Shown: positions 22,524 to 28,538, numbered from the stretch's first letter. The stretch is DNA of 37,546 bases from a virus (IMGVR_UViG_2565956620_000003), one strand, 5' to 3'. Program-made: numbers and translations. Notes: generated by a model from the sequence alone, not told the origin.

Positions 22524-22774
22524 TGAAAGAATACCGCTATTCCGGCCCGGCCAGCGGCGTCACGCTGTCGGACGGAACCGAAATCCTGCTCTGGCCGGGG
22601 AAGACGGTTTCCCTGCCGGAGGAGCATGACTACGTGAAGGTACTGGTGGCGCTGAAACATCTGACGCCGGTACCTGAAGAGACTAAACCCGCCGGCACAC
22701 CGGCTGTGCAGTCACCAAAGCGCAGAAGCAGCAGTGACAGCGAAGTGAAAACGGAGGACACCCATGGCAGCTAA
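22520..22774 (+). CDS. Hypothetical structural-module protein (84 aa)
   Basis: Packed ORF with 4-bp overlap at the start. Confidence 0.5.
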   Translation: MMKEYRYSGPASGVTLSDGTEILLWPGKTVSLPEEHDYVKVLVALKHLTPVPEETKPAGTPAVQSPKRRSSSDSEVKTEDTHGS

Positions 22775-24191
22775 CTATCTGCATGGTCCCGAAACCATTG
22801 AGGTGGAAAACGGTGCCCGCCCGGTTAAAACGGTGAAATCTGCCGTTATTGGCCTGATTGGTACCGCCCCGATGGGGGATGTCAATACGCTGGTACAGTG
22901 CCTGTCTGAGAAAGACGCAGCGGCATTTGGCAGCCAGTTCACCGGCTTTACCATTCCGCAGGCGCTGGATGCGATTTATGACCATGGTGCAGGCACCGTT
23001 CTGGTCATTAACGTCCTCGACCCGGCGAAACATAAAACGGCGATCGAGGATGAGGTGGTTACCTTTGACAAATCGACAGGGCAGGCCAGACTGGCGCATC
23101 CGGTTGTCGCTAATGTGGTGGTGAAAAACAGTGAAGGCAGCACCACCCACACGGCGAACACGGACTACCGTGTTGATGCGCAGGCGGGTGTGCTCACGAA
23201 CCTGGGCAAGGCTATTGAGGCCGGTGGCAGCGTGAAGGTGAGCTATGAGTACGCGGACCCGTCGAAGGTGACTGCGGCGGACATCATCGGCGGGGTGAAC
23301 AGCGCCGGAAACCGAACCGGCATGAAGCTGCTTAACGACAGCTTCAACCTGTACGGCTATTTCGCCAAAATTCTGATTGCGCCGGTGTTCTGCACCCAGA
23401 AGAGTGTCGCAGTTGAGCTTATCGCCATGGCAGAGAAGCTGGGCGCGGTAACCTACATTGATGCGCCTGTCGGTACCACCTTTGCACAGGCTCTGGCAGG
23501 TCGTGGCCCGGAAGGCACCATCAACTTCAATACCAGCTCCGACCGCGTCCGTCTGTGCTATCCGCATGTGAAGGTATATGACCCGGTGACAAACACAGAG
23601 CGTCTGGAGCCGCTCAGCCAGCGTGCAGCAGGTCTGCGTGCCAGAGTCGATCTGGACAAGGGCTACTGGTGGTCATCCTCCAATCAGGAGATTCTGGGGA
23701 TCACCGGCGTGGAGCGCCAGCTGTCCGCGATGATTGATGACCCGCAGAGTGAGGTGAACCTGCTTAACGAACAGGGGATCACCACGGTATTCAGCAGTTA
23801 CGGCAGCGGCCTTCGTCTGTGGGGTAACCGGACGGCAGCATGGCCAACGGTCACCCATATGCGTAACTTTGAGAACGTTCGCCGCACCGGTGATGTGATC
23901 AACGAGTCCATTCGTTATTTCAGCCAGCAGTACATCGACATGCCGATTACTCAGGCGCTGATTGATGCACTGACGGAGTCGGTCAACGCCTACGGTCGCA
24001 AAATGACTGGTGATGGTGCGGTACTGGGCTTCCGTTGCTGGTTTGATCCGGCCCGCAATCCGGAGACGGAGCTGGCCGCCGGGCACCTGTTGCTGAGCTA
24101 CAAATATACGCCACCACCGCCGCTGGAGCGACTGACGTTTGAGACTGAGATCACCTCGGAATACCTGTTAACCCTGAAAGGGGGCAACTGA
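22764..24191 (+). CDS. Contractile tail sheath protein (Mu L-like)
   Basis: 475 aa; followed by the tube gene. Confidence 0.85.
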   Translation: MAANYLHGPETIEVENGARPVKTVKSAVIGLIGTAPMGDVNTLVQCLSEKDAAAFGSQFTGFTIPQALDAIYDHGAGTVLVINVLDPAKHKTAIEDEVVTFDKSTGQARLAHPVVANVVVKNSEGSTTHTANTDYRVDAQAGVLTNLGKAIEAGGSVKVSYEYADPSKVTAADIIGGVNSAGNRTGMKLLNDSFNLYGYFAKILIAPVFCTQKSVAVELIAMAEKLGAVTYIDAPVGTTFAQALAGRGPEGTINFNTSSDRVRLCYPHVKVYDPVTNTERLEPLSQRAAGLRARVDLDKGYWWSSSNQEILGITGVERQLSAMIDDPQSEVNLLNEQGITTVFSSYGSGLRLWGNRTAAWPTVTHMRNFENVRRTGDVINESIRYFSQQYIDMPITQALIDALTESVNAYGRKMTGDGAVLGFRCWFDPARNPETELAAGHLLLSYKYTPPPPLERLTFETEITSEYLLTLKGGN

Positions 24192-24712
24192 TGTCAAAGA
24201 TTGAGATAAACCGCATCACGAATGCCAACATCTATCTGGATGGTACTAACCTGCTGGGACGGGCTGAGGAAGTTAAACTCCCCGATGTCTCCATGATTAT
24301 GCAGGAACACAAGGCGCTGGGGATGGTGGGTAAGGTGGAACTCCCGGCTGGTTTTGACAAACTGGAAGGCGAAATCAAATGGAACAGCTTTTACCGCGAT
24401 GCGATGCTGTCTGCCGCGAACCCGTACAGGTCGCTGGCACTGCAGTGTCGTTCCAGCGTCCAGCGCTACAGCTCGCAGGGGCTGATTGACGAAATCCCGC
24501 TGGTCACCTTCCTGACGATTATGTTCAAGAAGAACCCGCTGGGGACGTTCAAACAGCACGAGAACGCCGAGTTCTCCAGTAGCTTCACCTGCACGTATAT
24601 CAGACAGGTACTGGATGGTGAAGAGCTGCTGCAACTGGACTATCTGGCCAACATCTTCCGGGTCGGCGGTGTTGATCAACTGACTGACTACCGTATCAAT
24701 ATCGGGGGCTGA
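24191..24712 (+). CDS. Tail tube protein (Mu M-like)
   Basis: 173 aa; start overlaps the sheath stop. Confidence 0.8.
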   Translation: MSKIEINRITNANIYLDGTNLLGRAEEVKLPDVSMIMQEHKALGMVGKVELPAGFDKLEGEIKWNSFYRDAMLSAANPYRSLALQCRSSVQRYSSQGLIDEIPLVTFLTIMFKKNPLGTFKQHENAEFSSSFTCTYIRQVLDGEELLQLDYLANIFRVGGVDQLTDYRINIGG

Positions 24713-24714
24713 CG

Positions 24715-24996
24715 GTGAGTGTTGAACTGACGGATAAAGGAGGACGATGTGCGGCACTGGGCATGTCAAATGGTACGTGGTTTACCCTCCTTGATATTCC
24801 GGGGGTGGAAACCCTTTTTAATACCCGTAAAACCAATGACCCGATTGACTGCACACGTTCAAAGGCCCGCAAACTGGCGGATTTGATTGAAGCATGGGAG
24901 CCTCCCGACCACTGGTTCTCCGGCATCGGCAAATCTGAGGGAAAGACGCTTCTCATCGCTTTCCTGCGTAACTGCAAGGGGTTTCGCACTTGCTGA
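24715..24996 (+). CDS. Hypothetical protein (start uncertain)
   Basis: Track ORF uses GTG at 24715; an in-frame ATG lies at 24766. Confidence 0.35.
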   Translation: MSVELTDKGGRCAALGMSNGTWFTLLDIPGVETLFNTRKTNDPIDCTRSKARKLADLIEAWEPPDHWFSGIGKSEGKTLLIAFLRNCKGFRTC

Positions 24997-25003
24997 CATC
25001 ACA

Positions 25004-25028
25004 GGGGCTCCGGCCCCTTCTTCTTAAT
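25004..25028 (+). terminator. Short GC hairpin, possible intra-operon attenuator
   Basis: GGGGC-TCCG-GCCCC followed by TTCTTCTT; only a 5-bp stem. Confidence 0.25.
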
Positions 25029-25093: not shown

Positions 25094-25429
25094 ATGTCAC
25101 AGACCCCATCCGATACTTTTAAATTGTCTTATCCCTTCACCACTGCTGCAGGCACCAGAATTGAGCTGGTTGAACTGAAACGCCTGACGGTAAAAGACCT
25201 GAAGCAGGTGCGCAAAATCAGCAAAAACCCGGCAGACTGGGACGAACCGCTGATTGCCCGCAGTACTGGTCTTCTCCCGGAGGATCTCGACAATATGGAT
25301 CTGGCTGATTACCTGCAGTTACAGAAACGATTTCAGCTCATCACGGGGATGGGTGAGAGCAACCAGGGCGCTGACGCAGGCGCAGGGGCTGCTGGCGAGA
25401 TGGTTCCGGTTTCAGCCGGGGGAGATTGA
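25094..25429 (+). CDS. Tail assembly chaperone (upstream frame)
   Basis: 111 aa; ribosome-binding site CAGGAGC; immediately upstream of the tape measure gene. Confidence 0.65.
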   Translation: MSQTPSDTFKLSYPFTTAAGTRIELVELKRLTVKDLKQVRKISKNPADWDEPLIARSTGLLPEDLDNMDLADYLQLQKRFQLITGMGESNQGADAGAGAAGEMVPVSAGGD

Positions 25430-25511
25430 TGCCCTCGATACTGACGATCTGGAGATGTGGCTGGAGCAGGCTGAAGAGCAAATCAAAAGCGAGTACGGCG
25501 ACAAATCATAG
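25254..25511 (+). CDS. Overlapping ORF, candidate frameshift extension of the tail assembly chaperone
   Basis: Open in the +1 frame relative to 25094..25429 and runs past its stop; the G-run CCGGGGGAG at 25416-25424 sits at the end of the upstream frame. Confidence 0.4.
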   Translation: MPAVLVFSRRISTIWIWLITCSYRNDFSSSRGWVRATRALTQAQGLLARWFRFQPGEIDALDTDDLEMWLEQAEEQIKSEYGDKS

Positions 25512-25586
25512 TACAGACAGCCGCCAGTAGCGGCTGTTCTGCGTTATCCCCTCACGTCTTTTCACCTTCCCCGGAGGTTAACCACT

Positions 25587-28538
25587 ATGTCGGGACAGTT
25601 TTCAGTCGGCGTTGTTATCGGCGGGATGATTGGCAGCACATTCCGTTCTGCAATGAGCGGTACCCGCCGTGCGCTTGATTCCCTGAGCGATACCTCACGC
25701 CGCCTGCAGGAACGTCAGAACGCTTTAACCCGTGCAACAGAACGTTATGGTCAACTGGGTTCTTCCCGGATGCAGCATCTCAACAGCGAGCTGCTGCGGG
25801 TAAGCCGCACCATGGAGCAAATTGAGCGCCAGCAGCGCCGTCTGTCAGCGGCATCCGCTACCAGTGATGCGCTGAAAGCTAACCGCATGGCGCTGTATGG
25901 TCAGGGGATTGAAGCGTATGGCATGGCACAGACTGTTTATCATACGGTTTCCCCTGCCGTTCAGCAGTCCATGTCTTTTCAGGACAAAATGATTGATATG
26001 TCGATCACCGCAAAATATGACAATAAAACGCGGGATGCACTTGCCGGACAGATAAAAGGCTGGGCGCTTAAATACAATCAGTATCAGGATGAGCTGCAGG
26101 AGGCGATGGGTTCACTCATCAGCGACAATATTGATAATGTGTCAGATATCGGTTTTCTGATGCCGGATATTGCCCGCGCGGCAACGGCAACACGCACGTC
26201 TGCTCAGGACTGGGCAAAAGTGGCCGCAGTCTGGCAAAACTCCCTGAAAGGCGCGGCCAGAGATTTTGGTGCCGTTCAGAATATTATGGCTTATGCCGGT
26301 GACCAGGGGTCATTTGAAATCCCGGATCAGGTCAAGTGGATGCAGTCCCTGGCCCCAATGATGGCGGGTATTGCCAGTGGAAAAGAGGCTGTTGCTGAAA
26401 TCGGGGCCAGTCTCCAGATAGCAAAAATCGGTGCAGGTTCCACCGACGAAGCAGCCAATAATTTTAAAAACTTTCTTACCAAAATTTTTGCCCGCGATAC
26501 TCAGAAACAGTTTGCTGATCTGGGTATTGATTTGCAGGGATCTATTGCGAGTTATAAAGCTGCGGGGATCTCTCCGATTGAAGGGATGTTGAGTGTTATA
26601 GAACGTTACCTCAATGCCAAAAGCCCCGAAGCGCTGGCCGGCTTCAAATCAGCCATGAAAATAAAGAATGATACGGCAAGAGATGAGGCACTTCAGGCTC
26701 TGGCGAAAAACTTTGGTCTGGGCGATATGTTCGCGGATATGCAGGTCATGGCATTTATCCGCCCGATGCTGGCCAACATGGACAGATATCGAGAGATCCG
26801 TGCCGGTGCTCTCAGGGCTGCGGATAACGATTTGCTTGCCAGTGCTTATGATCAGCGGCTGAAATCTCCCCTTGAAGCCACTAAAACACTTATGGTCAGC
26901 AGTCGCGATCTGGCAATTACGCTGGGCGATCAATTAGCTCCATCTTTTATTTCTCTGACTCAGGACTTGCTCCCACTCATTCAGGGGACAAAACACTGGG
27001 TGGCGACTCACCCGCAATTTGTCAGTGGGGCTTTTAAGCTCATCAGTGCGCTCCTTGCGATTAAGATAGCGACTGTTGGTCTCAAACTGGGGCTGAATCT
27101 CCTTATTTCCCCCTTTGTGAACGTCTGGAAAACTGCTGTTTTACTCCGGACCAACTGGCATCGACTGACTACCGCACTCGGAGAAGGTGGCAAATTACGC
27201 TGGCTTGTCACTGGATTCAGCCGACTGACCAGCGGAGGACTGAAACTCAGCAAAGTTCTGGCGGGCAGCCTCGTTCGCGGTTTTATGAGCGCTGCACGTG
27301 CCGTTCTCTGGATTGGGCGAGCGCTGATGATGAATCCCATCGGTCTCGTTATCACCGCTGTCGCGGCAGCAGCTTACCTTATCTACCGCAACTGGGGGGC
27401 AGTCAGTGGCTGGTTTAAACAGCGCTGGGCTGACATTCAGGAAGCCTTTAACGGCGGTATCGCGGGAACTGGTAAGCTGCTGATTAACTGGTCGCCGGCA
27501 GGCCTGCTCTATAAAGCCTTTGCGGCTGCGCTGAAATATTTCGGCGTTACTCTGCCGGCAAAGTTCACCGACTTCGGTGGCCATCTTATCGACGGTTTGA
27601 TTAACGGTATCAAAAACAAATGGGGGTCGCTCAAATCCAGTGTAACCGGAATGGGTGACAGCATCAGTAGCTGGTTTAAACAATGCTGGGCTGACATTCA
27701 GGAAGCCTTTAACGGCGGTATCGCGGGAACTGGTAAGCTGCTGATTAACTGGTCGCCGGCAGGCCTGCTCTATAAAGCCTTTGCAGCTGCGCTGAAATAT
27801 CTTGGTGTTGATCTGCCGGCAAAGTTTACCGACTTCGGTGGCCATCTTGTCGATGGTCTGATTAACGGTATCAAAAACAAATGGGAGTCGCTCAAATCCA
27901 GTGTAACCGGAATGGGCGACAGCATCAGTGGCTGGTTCAGCGAAAAGCTGGGCATTCATTCGCCGAGCCGCGTGTTTATGGGCTTTGGTGACAATATCGC
28001 GCAGGGGGCCGCCATTGGCCTGCAGCGGACCACTCCGCTTGCAGCTCTGGCCGGGCAGCGAATGGCCAGTGAACTGCTCCCCAGAATGCCCGTGAGCATT
28101 CAGGGGCCAGAAATACGGGATAACACTTCAGGTGTTCGCTTCAGTATGCCGTTGCCCGATATCAATGGGTTTATGTCGTCTGCTAAAAATGCGATCGGAG
28201 CCGTAATCAATAGTTTGTCTTCCATGCCCGCTATTCCGCTCTCCACCCGGGCATCGATTTTACCAGGGCAACGTCTGGCAAATGAGATGACACCGGATGT
28301 TCCCCGTATCCCCTCGCCTGAAATCCTGGCTGCCGGATATTCAGGCCGTGGTGCAGCTGCAACCGGCGGTGGAACGTCTGGTGGTATCCAGGTCAGCTTT
28401 AATCCTCAGTTTTTCCTCAATGGCAGGGAAACCACAGCGCCTGCAGGACTGACTGGTGCCCTGAATATGAGTCTGCATGAGCTGGAAAAAATGCTGGAGC
28501 GTCTGCTGGCTCAGAAACAACGTAAGGAGTACCGCTGA
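25587..28538 (+). CDS. Tail tape measure protein
   Basis: 983 aa; long helical N-terminal part, hydrophobic central segments, position after the chaperone pair. Confidence 0.9.
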   Translation: MSGQFSVGVVIGGMIGSTFRSAMSGTRRALDSLSDTSRRLQERQNALTRATERYGQLGSSRMQHLNSELLRVSRTMEQIERQQRRLSAASATSDALKANRMALYGQGIEAYGMAQTVYHTVSPAVQQSMSFQDKMIDMSITAKYDNKTRDALAGQIKGWALKYNQYQDELQEAMGSLISDNIDNVSDIGFLMPDIARAATATRTSAQDWAKVAAVWQNSLKGAARDFGAVQNIMAYAGDQGSFEIPDQVKWMQSLAPMMAGIASGKEAVAEIGASLQIAKIGAGSTDEAANNFKNFLTKIFARDTQKQFADLGIDLQGSIASYKAAGISPIEGMLSVIERYLNAKSPEALAGFKSAMKIKNDTARDEALQALAKNFGLGDMFADMQVMAFIRPMLANMDRYREIRAGALRAADNDLLASAYDQRLKSPLEATKTLMVSSRDLAITLGDQLAPSFISLTQDLLPLIQGTKHWVATHPQFVSGAFKLISALLAIKIATVGLKLGLNLLISPFVNVWKTAVLLRTNWHRLTTALGEGGKLRWLVTGFSRLTSGGLKLSKVLAGSLVRGFMSAARAVLWIGRALMMNPIGLVITAVAAAAYLIYRNWGAVSGWFKQRWADIQEAFNGGIAGTGKLLINWSPAGLLYKAFAAALKYFGVTLPAKFTDFGGHLIDGLINGIKNKWGSLKSSVTGMGDSISSWFKQCWADIQEAFNGGIAGTGKLLINWSPAGLLYKAFAAALKYLGVDLPAKFTDFGGHLVDGLINGIKNKWESLKSSVTGMGDSISGWFSEKLGIHSPSRVFMGFGDNIAQGAAIGLQRTTPLAALAGQRMASELLPRMPVSIQGPEIRDNTSGVRFSMPLPDINGFMSSAKNAIGAVINSLSSMPAIPLSTRASILPGQRLANEMTPDVPRIPSPEILAAGYSGRGAAATGGGTSGGIQVSFNPQFFLNGRETTAPAGLTGALNMSLHELEKMLERLLAQKQRKEYR
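27411..27932 (+). repeat. In-frame tandem duplication (2 x 261 bp) inside the tape measure gene
   Basis: Two adjacent, nearly identical 87-aa units beginning WFKQ(R/C)WADIQEAFNGGIAGTGKLLINWSPAGLLYKAFAAALKY...; copies start at 27411 and 27672. Confidence 0.85.

Follow-up and report, generated by a model that had tools for sequence, protein, structure and literature searches.

Overlapping frames and the change of the selected frame

We analysed a 37,546-nucleotide (nt) stretch of viral DNA, IMGVR_UViG_2565956620_000003, referred to below as the window. It is an Escherichia coli prophage of the BcepMu-like type, with a Mu-like head and replication module and a P2-type tail module. Our subject is the pair of overlapping open reading frames (ORFs) directly 5′ of its tape measure gene, which an earlier reading of the sequence alone (the sequence-only reading) had taken for a tail assembly chaperone pair joined by a programmed +1 frameshift. 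The first frame, ORF1, runs for 111 codons from an ATG at 25094 to a TGA at 25427-25429. The second is open from 25254 to a stop at 25509-25511. It does lie in the +1 frame (equivalently −2) relative to ORF1 and not in the −1 frame (25094 mod 3 = 2, 25254 mod 3 = 0); the −1 frame carries stops. Any +1 shift in the overlap would yield a protein of 138 amino acids (aa), and any −2 shift one of 139 aa. ORF1 matches the Phage_TAC_7 family (PF10109) with 74.8 bits against a cut-off of 25, and the +1-frame peptide is homologous to E′ of phage P2. The assignment of the pair to the tail assembly chaperones is supported, and we refer to the ORF1 product as gpE and to the +1 extension as E′ (Table 1). 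The sequence-only reading had also pointed to a G-run at the end of the first frame. The run, CCGGGGGAG, is present at 25416-25424, its five Gs being 25418-25422.

Relatives of the locus were collected in three sets. The peptides EDLDNMD and LLARWFRF served as seeds for 64 loci from species-representative genomes (GTDB), IMG/VR gave 80 close relatives, and seeds from other peptides gave 35 loci of a separate BcepMu clade. BcepMu, P2 and Mu were among the annotated phages added to the comparison. Each locus was anchored by tblastn of the N-domain and the E′ core, and frames were counted over distinct loci (66 from GTDB, 50 from IMG/VR and 30 from the BcepMu clade). E′ lies in the +1 frame in 61/66, 49/50 and 30/30 of these, respectively. 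Conservation of the second ORF in relatives had been set beforehand as a test of the proposed frameshift. The same +1-frame peptide is conserved in ~140 related loci, which places the overlap far beyond chance. One might instead suppose that the overlap is a relic or a chance ORF and that only the 111-aa protein matters, as the RefSeq annotation and the record of Escherichia phage PhiKM, which give the 111-aa ORF only, would have it. This is effectively refuted by the ~140 loci, from Enterobacterales to Burkholderiales, in which the +1 frame is intact and under purifying selection, and by the unconstrained zero-frame tail.

A few loci depart from the +1 arrangement. In three Pasteurellaceae loci (L006, L070 and L071) E′ lies in the −1 frame, 3′ of a canonical G_GGA_AAG heptamer. 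This heptamer, the only canonical one in the family, sits a few codons 3′ of where the +1-type loci have Phe. These sequences indicate that the chaperone family has switched frameshift direction. E′ is in frame with the chaperone in two GTDB loci (L011 and L012) and one IMG/VR locus (L099). L011 and L012, the two that were examined, carry one-off single-base indels. In L012 (Apirhabdus apintestini) a single base is deleted ~15 nt 5′ of the TTTC discussed below, and only a fusion-like protein (…DYLGCRPDFKKSQGW…) is encoded; the locus is either a pseudogene or a naturally ‘fixed’ fusion. Two further observations concern the origin of the loci. L010 (NZ_PJIO01000028.1, ‘Arthrobacter sp. GMC3’), an 8.2-kb contig, encodes a predicted chaperone–E′ fusion 99% identical to that of the window; an actinobacterial origin is implausible and assembly contamination is probable. 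Many Pectobacterium species (L032-L043, L057) carry the same +1-type chaperone pair, and some of these loci may be tailocin (carotovoricin-like) clusters instead of prophages.

The frame under selection was followed along the region by the synonymous fraction, scored among codon pairs differing at one base in 41 distinct ungapped Enterobacterales sequences. Over the 60 nt upstream of Phe80 the fraction is 0.75 in frame 0, 0.14 in +1 and 0.17 in −1. In the 18 nt after Phe80 (25335-25352) it is 0.52 in frame 0 and 0.43 in +1, with 0.09 in −1. From 25353 to 25388 the values are 0.17, 0.55 and 0.19, over the motif LLARWFRFQP (25389-25418) they are 0.11, 0.86 and 0.04, and in the rest of E′ they are 0.11, 0.62 and 0.10 (frame 0, +1 and −1). 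Constraint in frame 0 thus covers the first ~86 codons (to ~25351) and stops about six codons past Phe80. Constraint in +1 begins directly after Phe80 and is strongest, for the whole region, over LLARWFRFQP. In its own frame, the final stretch of ~25 residues of the annotated 111-aa protein changes in the manner of non-coding sequence. An invariant Trp codon (TGG) is also present in +1. The Gly codon before it is GGA, GGC, GGG or GGT across relatives, and these variants in frame 0 would give Met, Leu, Val and Leu. Between the window and Klebsiella phage KP12 there are four nucleotide differences in 25400-25409, all synonymous in +1, where R-W-F-R-F is kept. In frame 0 the same differences change Met to Val, Pro to a stop and Val to Ile. 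At least there, +1 is the selected frame 5′ of the G-run.

These data bear directly on the G-run, which the sequence-only reading had taken as the shift site. The run reads GCC GGG GGA GAT TGA in frame 0 (25415-25429) and CCG GGG GAG ATT GAT in frame +1. A +1 shift, or a −2 shift as in Mu, on GCC_GGG_GGA (25418-25423) would join ~110 aa of frame 0 to 28-29 aa of +1, with the junction peptide ...PVSAGGEIDALDTDDLEMWLEQAEEQIK / ...EMVPVSAGGEIDALDTDDLEMWLEQAEEQIK (or with a single G). Such a site was reasonable a priori, as Mu has its verified −2 site on a run of five Gs, likewise a short distance 5′ of the zero-frame stop. The zero frame of the window runs through to the run, and tRNA-Gly could re-pair there from GGA to GGG (−2) or from GGG to GGG (+1). 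However, the zero frame ends 5′ of the run, at a TAG 10 nt upstream, in 30 of the 50 distinct close relatives. KP12 and Escherichia phage Phi06_2974 B (84-87% identity) keep CCGGGGGAG and have the same upstream TAG. The run itself is broken by +1-synonymous variants (CCT GGG GAG, CCA GGG GAG and CCG GGT GAG), and most clades, including more distant relatives, have AGT (Ser) in its place, giving QP-S-EID for QP-G-EID. The KP12 differences also speak against it. A shift at the run would moreover omit LLARWFRFQP and the ~15 residues preceding it, the best conserved and +1-constrained part of E′ and the start of the Pfam GpE domain. Given the +1 constraint 5′ of the run and the upstream TAG, the shift must occur at least ~70 nt 5′ of the run. 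The fusion of 111 plus about 28 aa in the sequence-only reading is arithmetically right for a shift at the run, but such a product does not agree with a +1 selection that starts ~70-85 nt further 5′. We consider a shift at the G-run very improbable and judge the run to be incidental, its sequence being that of the Pro-Gly-Glu codons of the E′ motif QP[S/G]EID.

Several independent assemblies, L011 (Erwinia tracheiphila), P0003-P0005 and P0007-P0009, have GGGG for GGGGG at the run and encode exactly such a fusion in one frame, with frame 0 joined directly to the last 28 aa of E′ (…VSAGEIDAL…). Their recurrence is notable, and they are probably homopolymer sequencing or assembly errors or inactivating mutations. 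As evidence for a shift at the run they are weakened by the fact that they are best explained as homopolymer indels and that their junctions are one of several kinds. The 138-aa single-ORF entries in the databases have heterogeneous junctions at homopolymers, which fits assembly indels and makes them uninformative on the junction.

The family relationships of E′ are consistent with a fusion product. The window E′ matches PHROG 8286 (E=3e-34) and aligns end to end with P2 E′ in a plausible alignment. Its match to PF06528 (Phage_P2_GpE) scores 18.4 bits (E=0.0015), below the 23-bit cut-off. Among 29 aligned family members, 18 match PF06528 at E<=0.01, one of them being P2 itself, and an NCBIfam search gave no match for E′ or for the fusion. 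On this sequence evidence we regard the +1 peptide as a probable member of the P2 E′ (GpE) family, and the pair as the P2 gpE/E+E′ system with the frameshift direction changed.

PHROG 8286 is at the same time a family of ~54-aa stand-alone calls. This would favour a reading without any frameshift, in which E′ is an independent ~52-aa protein initiated at an internal +1-frame GTG at 25353, preceded by GGGGA. A RefSeq protein from a degraded prophage, WP_001202894.1 (‘GpE family phage tail protein’, 52 aa), starts at that GTG, and gp42 of BcepMu is annotated from an internal ATG. Nevertheless, an independent start is improbable. No conserved +1-frame start codon was found among 48 distinct relatives, only 5 of which have a +1-frame ATG or GTG between the TTT_C described below and 21 nt before the first Leu codon of LLARWF. 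At the position of the window’s GTG relatives carry GCA, CTG, ATA, CTA or GTT, the +1 constraint, including the invariant Trp, begins 5′ of 25353, and the P2 homologue of E′ is produced solely in fused form. As had been proposed, a programmed shift of some kind into +1 very probably yields an E+E′ fusion: selection acts on this conserved frame, which lacks a conserved start and whose peptide is homologous to the fusion-made E′ of P2.

The candidate shift site

The candidate for the site of the shift is TTT_C at 25331-25334, ~87 bases 5′ of the G-run. Its position was examined through the permitted interval of each locus, defined as the span from the last upstream +1-frame stop to the first zero-frame stop. 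Relative to the first Leu codon of LLARWF, the zero-frame stop of the relatives wanders from −43 to +38 nt. It lies 5′ of LLARWF in L007, L056, L058-60, L063, L064 and L168-177, so a site near the window’s G-run is impossible in those loci. In L064 the zero frame reads TTT TTT CGC TGA, with the stop one codon past TTT_CGC. In L005, L052-55 and L066 the +1 frame opens 8 nt 5′ of the TTT, and 14 nt are common to these intervals and that of L064. Both limits fall within a single locus in L170-177; of the 29 nt left there, only TTT_C is plausible as a slippery element. The invariant TTT_C lies inside every permitted interval and is the only candidate common to all +1-type loci. GGG_G at 25385-25388 was also tried as a site and dropped, on account of the zero-frame stops 5′ of LLARWF (L007, L056, L058-60, L063 and L064) and because the run is missing in L004 and others.

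The Phe80 column was identified from the protein alignment of the zero-frame products and not by motif. It is TTT followed by C in all 61 +1-type loci, and likewise in the 49 +1-type close relatives and the 30 BcepMu-clade loci; in the −1-type loci it is L, I or V. A zero-frame UUU followed by a pyrimidine is thus present in the window and invariant in its +1-type relatives. In the BcepMu clade, where the TTT is followed by CGC, CGT or CGG, an unselected list of Phe codons in the permitted interval shows no zero-frame Phe codon other than TTT_C close to where the chaperone domain ends. Across the loci the codon after TTT varies (CAG, CAA, CAT, CTG, CGC, CGG or CGT; Gln, His, Leu or Arg) and its first base is always C, which means that this base is conserved beyond amino-acid need. 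In the lineages with CTG a change of C to T would be synonymous in both frames, yet none was seen. TTT makes up 4-29% of Phe codons in the flanking ORFs of 14 of 15 GC-rich representative lineages and 42% in the fifteenth. The product of the smoothed TTT fractions over the 15 lineages is ~1.5e-11, a value that is indicative only, as the lineages are related. CGA precedes the TTT in 46 of 57 distinct sequences, and in 46 of the 47 that have Arg there; its share of Arg codons is 4% in the window’s long ORFs and 12% in pooled relatives. We consider a +1 shift at CGA_UUU_C the best explanation of these patterns, with a probability of roughly 0.7.

The stretch in which both frames are constrained leaves room for another site. 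In that case a lineage-specific +1 slip would take place inside 25335-25352, here on ACG_GGG_A (25343-25349) with re-pairing from GGG to GGA, and give …FQLITG/WVRAT…. GGG_N directly precedes the invariant +1-frame TGG in many Enterobacterales relatives, the conserved G-W would be retained in the product, frame 0 is still partly constrained over those codons (0.52), and one noisy database entry (P0006) has its junction there. The element is, however, missing from part of the family, with AGC A in L004 and L039, CTG G in L058-60 and no counterpart in the BcepMu clade. The zero frame of L064 has already stopped 5′ of that position, and L170-177 have their permitted 29 nt without such a run. Such a slip would also give no reason why TTT is invariant against codon bias, nor any for the constancy of CGA and of the C after TTT. 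We therefore consider this site unlikely.

E. coli has one tRNA-Phe (anticodon GAA), which reads UUU by G-U wobble and UUC by Watson-Crick pairing, and in this organism UUU before a pyrimidine is a context known to be prone to +1 shifts. Such sites are reportedly prone to +1 shifts intrinsically, according to work attributed to Fu and Parker in 1994 (on argI) and to Schwartz and Curran in 1997. In the mechanism that we propose for CGA_UUU_C, most ribosomes would stay in frame 0 and make gpE, the functional part of which would end ~6 residues past Phe80 and be followed by an unconstrained tail of ~25 residues. A minority would shift +1 at the site. The peptidyl-tRNA-Phe in the P site would re-pair from UUU (25331-25333) to the fully Watson-Crick UUC (25332-25334), and decoding would resume at AGC 25335 into the 58-codon E′ segment. 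This would produce a gpE+E′ fusion of 138 aa, corresponding to gpE+E′ of P2 and to gpGT of lambda. If the parallel with lambda holds, the shared N-domain would coat the tape measure protein, its presumed client, and the rare E′ domain would recruit the tube protein, its presumed partner, as in lambda gpGT-gpV. The comparative analysis shows a conserved and selected +1 frame, the start of this selection, the invariance of TTT_C and the narrow permitted intervals; P-site ribosomal slippage, its low efficiency and the roles of the two products are what we infer. A low efficiency would match the case of lambda, in which little fusion is needed and gpGT is made at ~1:30 of gpG (PMC5009743). We speculate that CGA, through its I-A wobble, weakens E-site pairing or slows the preceding step. 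A −2 event at UUU_C does not appear plausible: moving back two bases offers a cognate codon to neither tRNA-Phe nor the tRNA that follows. Two loci, in which the sequence is TTT TTT C, are an exception to this argument.

Several points weigh against a shift at CGA_UUU_C. The overlap in the window is 173 nt long and contains other runs (GGGG 25345-25348, GGGG 25385-25388 and GGGGG 25418-25422), so the assignment of the site to the window phage rests on homology. The invariance of T-T-T-C is partly expected from dual coding. A change of C to T makes a zero-frame stop where the next codon is CAG or CAA, and a change of TTT to TTC, if +1 decoding includes that codon, turns the +1-frame Phe into Ser. 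Because the sequences share ancestry, the counts are not independent events. A conserved downstream RNA structure was not found with RNAalifold on 24 diverse sequences (−0.92 kcal/mol, 3 pairs), and the corresponding fold in the window sequence has z = −1.8. An upstream Shine-Dalgarno (SD)-like element was not found either, column conservation showing a coding-type pattern only, and neither was a slow A-site codon, as the A site holds CAG, CAA, CTG or CGC, of which CAG is common. Since no stimulatory element was found, the shift efficiency may be very low.

Neighbouring genes and annotation

The features of the region are listed in Table 1. Homologues of gpU, gpX and gpD follow 3′ of the tape measure gene.

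Table 1. Features in and around the chaperone pair, in positions of the window
Feature	Position	Strand	Evidence or remark
Tail sheath	22764-24191		PF04984/PF17482
Tail tube	24191-24712	+	PF04985 Phage_tube, E=2.9e-53
93-aa ORF	24715-24996		Between tube and chaperone genes
Tail assembly chaperone ORF1, gpE-like, 111 aa	25094-25429	+	PF10109 Phage_TAC_7, E=5.5e-21, residues 8-81
Predicted +1 site CGA_UUU_C (Arg79, Phe80, first base of Gln81)	25328-25334	+	Comparative sequence
E′ (GpE-family) extension, 58 codons and stop	25335-25511	+	Predicted fusion: aa 1-80 + SSSRGWVRATRALTQAQGLLARWFRFQPGEIDALDTDDLEMWLEQAEEQIKSEYGDKS, 138 aa
Short dual-coding stretch	25335-25352	+	End of functional gpE (frame 0) and start of E′ (+1); 0.52/0.43 against a background of 0.09-0.17
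Zero-frame tail of ORF1	25353-25429	+	0.17 and 0.11, equal to background; read-through over E′ until a chance stop
Tape measure	25587-28538	+	PF10145 PhageMin_Tail, E=1.3e-20

The chaperone region is 100% identical to that of PhiKM (genus Bcepmuvirus). Its record names ORF1 ‘tail protein E’ and RefSeq ‘phage tail assembly protein’; both give the 111-aa ORF without slippage, and the predicted 138-aa fusion is not annotated in GenBank or RefSeq. An identical 493 bp is present in 637 of 5,426 complete E. coli genomes. The fusion is missing from the annotation of all of these, in which PGAP gives the 111-aa ‘phage tail assembly protein’ only. If the shift takes place at CGA_UUU_C, frameshift predictors keyed to the vicinity of the zero-frame stop or to rare A-site codons would choose the wrong site.

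BcepMu itself (L075, AY539836, 24602-25363) has been annotated differently. Its gp41 is followed by gp42 (‘Lambda G-like’), a +1 ORF called from an internal ATG. Annotated as the ‘slippage product’ is gp43, which lies in the −1 frame and overlaps the start of the tape measure gene. The composition of gp43 is that of an off-frame read of a GC-rich gene. Both gp42 and gp43 look mis-assigned, gp42 appearing to be the E′ frame of gp41. Our comparison indicates instead a gp41-gp42 +1 fusion at TCC TTT CGC.

The 93-aa ORF is kept in KP12 and in E. coli prophages and is absent from P2. Its match to DUF7739 is below threshold (24.7 vs 27 bits). A terminator-like hairpin (AGGGGCTCCGGCCCCT then TCTTCTTAAT) lies at 25003-25028, between this ORF and the chaperone gene and hence within the expected single late operon. 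Another hairpin, CAGCCGC-loop-GCGGCTG at 25519-25537, is located between the E′ stop and the tape measure start (fold of −18.1 kcal/mol, z = −3.9). KP12 and Phi06_2974B have the same stem with a different loop. A role in setting the ratio of chaperone to tape measure is possible, with the hairpin acting as a partial terminator or as an mRNA-stability element.

The tape measure gene contains a tandem duplication of 261 bp (87 aa) at 27403-27937, with 2.0 copies at 94% identity. The protein has 983 aa with the duplication, compared with 821 aa in KP12 and Phi06_2974B. The duplicated region is a sequencing gap in the PhiKM record, and in RefSeq strain SK1144 the gene is an incomplete pseudogene. 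If the duplication is real, a proportionally longer tail is predicted.

Comparison with known frameshift systems

Frameshifting in tail chaperones is textbook recoding. Nearly all defined sites are −1 heptamers, the −2 site of Mu being the main exception, and natural bacterial +1 sites are, to our knowledge, few and stop-codon dependent. Only tentatively do we suggest, from the sequence comparison, that CGA_UUU_C might be a programmed +1 signal that evolution has fixed and that has so far gone unrecognised, needing neither a stop codon or hungry codon nor an SD or RNA structure. The whole BcepMu-like gpE/E′ family across Enterobacterales, Burkholderiales and Pseudomonas would then rely on it, in phages, prophages and probably tailocins. 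If this is true, the site sits where P2 uses a −1 heptamer, with the Pasteurellaceae G_GGA_AAG nearby, and one protein family has switched frameshift direction while keeping site and product. Were a UUU_C site that opens into a selected ORF indeed fixed phylogenetically, the repertoire would gain a minimal +1 signal independent of stimulators. Such a site would also suit the question of how low-level +1 slippage is tuned, for instance by CGA in the E site. For BcepMu-like chaperones, neither a +1 nor a UUU_C site was found described in the literature searched, but key papers lie outside its coverage and an earlier mention is possible. The novelty of the site is thus provisional.

Tail-chaperone frameshifts have been reported in −1, −2 and +1 versions (PMC5009743). 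The G/GT pair of lambda resembles the present one in having two products that share an N-terminus, encoded by overlapping ORFs directly 5′ of the tape measure gene. As expected of a pair of this type, the second frame of the present one is conserved and selected without a conserved start, and its overlap holds a conserved candidate slippery sequence, TTT_C. Lambda differs in using a −1 shift on G_GGA_AAG and has no detectable sequence similarity to the window. In the window one extra small ORF, that of 93 aa, stands between the tube and chaperone genes.

The −2 frameshift annotated in Mu reportedly goes back to work of Xu, Hendrix and Duda in 2004. In the Mu record (AF083977) the gp41/gp41-42 fusion is made by a verified −2 frameshift at GAA CGG GGG CGA, a five-G run. 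Mu and the window share a chaperone between the tube and tape measure genes, a second frame that is +1/−2, and the Mu-like head and replication module. However, the G5 run of Mu lies ~8 codons before the zero-frame stop, whereas the candidate site of the window is at the domain boundary, 32 codons before the stop. Mu gp41 belongs to PF23746 (Gp41_Mu, 9e-35) with a weak PF10109 match, and the window protein matches PF10109 only. The look-alike G5 run in the window phage fails each comparative test.

P2 is the closer parallel. Its −1 frameshift annotation is said to be due to Christie and colleagues in 2002. The P2 record (AF063097) places an experimentally mapped −1 frameshift at GGT TTT TTG (T_TTT_TTG), at Phe84, and describes E′ as ‘shares amino terminus with gpE; -1 frameshift; essential’. 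P2 and the window have the same gene order (tube, E/E′, tape measure, U, D) and the same N-domain family, PF10109. The shift site, mapped in P2 and predicted in the window, is in both on one or more Phe codons at the C-terminal edge of the chaperone domain. The slip Phe84 of P2 is at about position 77 of the PF10109 profile, and Phe80 of the window and Phe74 of BcepMu are at position 74, that is, within ~3. From the slip Phe to the C-terminus there are 57 aa in P2 and 59 aa in the window. The two differ in the shift itself: P2 uses −1 on the tandem heptamer U_UUU_UUG, whereas the window E′ is in +1, after a single UUU followed by C and usually preceded by CGA. The window has no T6G heptamer and its −1 frame has stops. 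Sequence identity is low, and BLASTP matches the E′ core only (E=0.03).

A +1 slip of the P-site tRNA onto an overlapping cognate or near-cognate codon is also known from prfB (RF2) and Listeria phage PSA. These sites need a slow A-site stop (CUU_UGA and CCC_UGA) and an upstream SD or a downstream pseudoknot, whereas the window has the sense codon CAG in the A site and no conserved stimulator. In this respect the window is more like the UUU-pyrimidine sites, such as argI and the proposed UUU_UGG in Yersinia yopN-tyeA, in which a P-site tRNA-Phe on UUU re-pairs with UUY without RNA structure. Those cases have been described as translational errors or are unconfirmed, and mutating the yopN site had no effect (PMC3789692). 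In contrast, the motif in the window has been conserved in a family of phage genes and opens into an ORF under selection.

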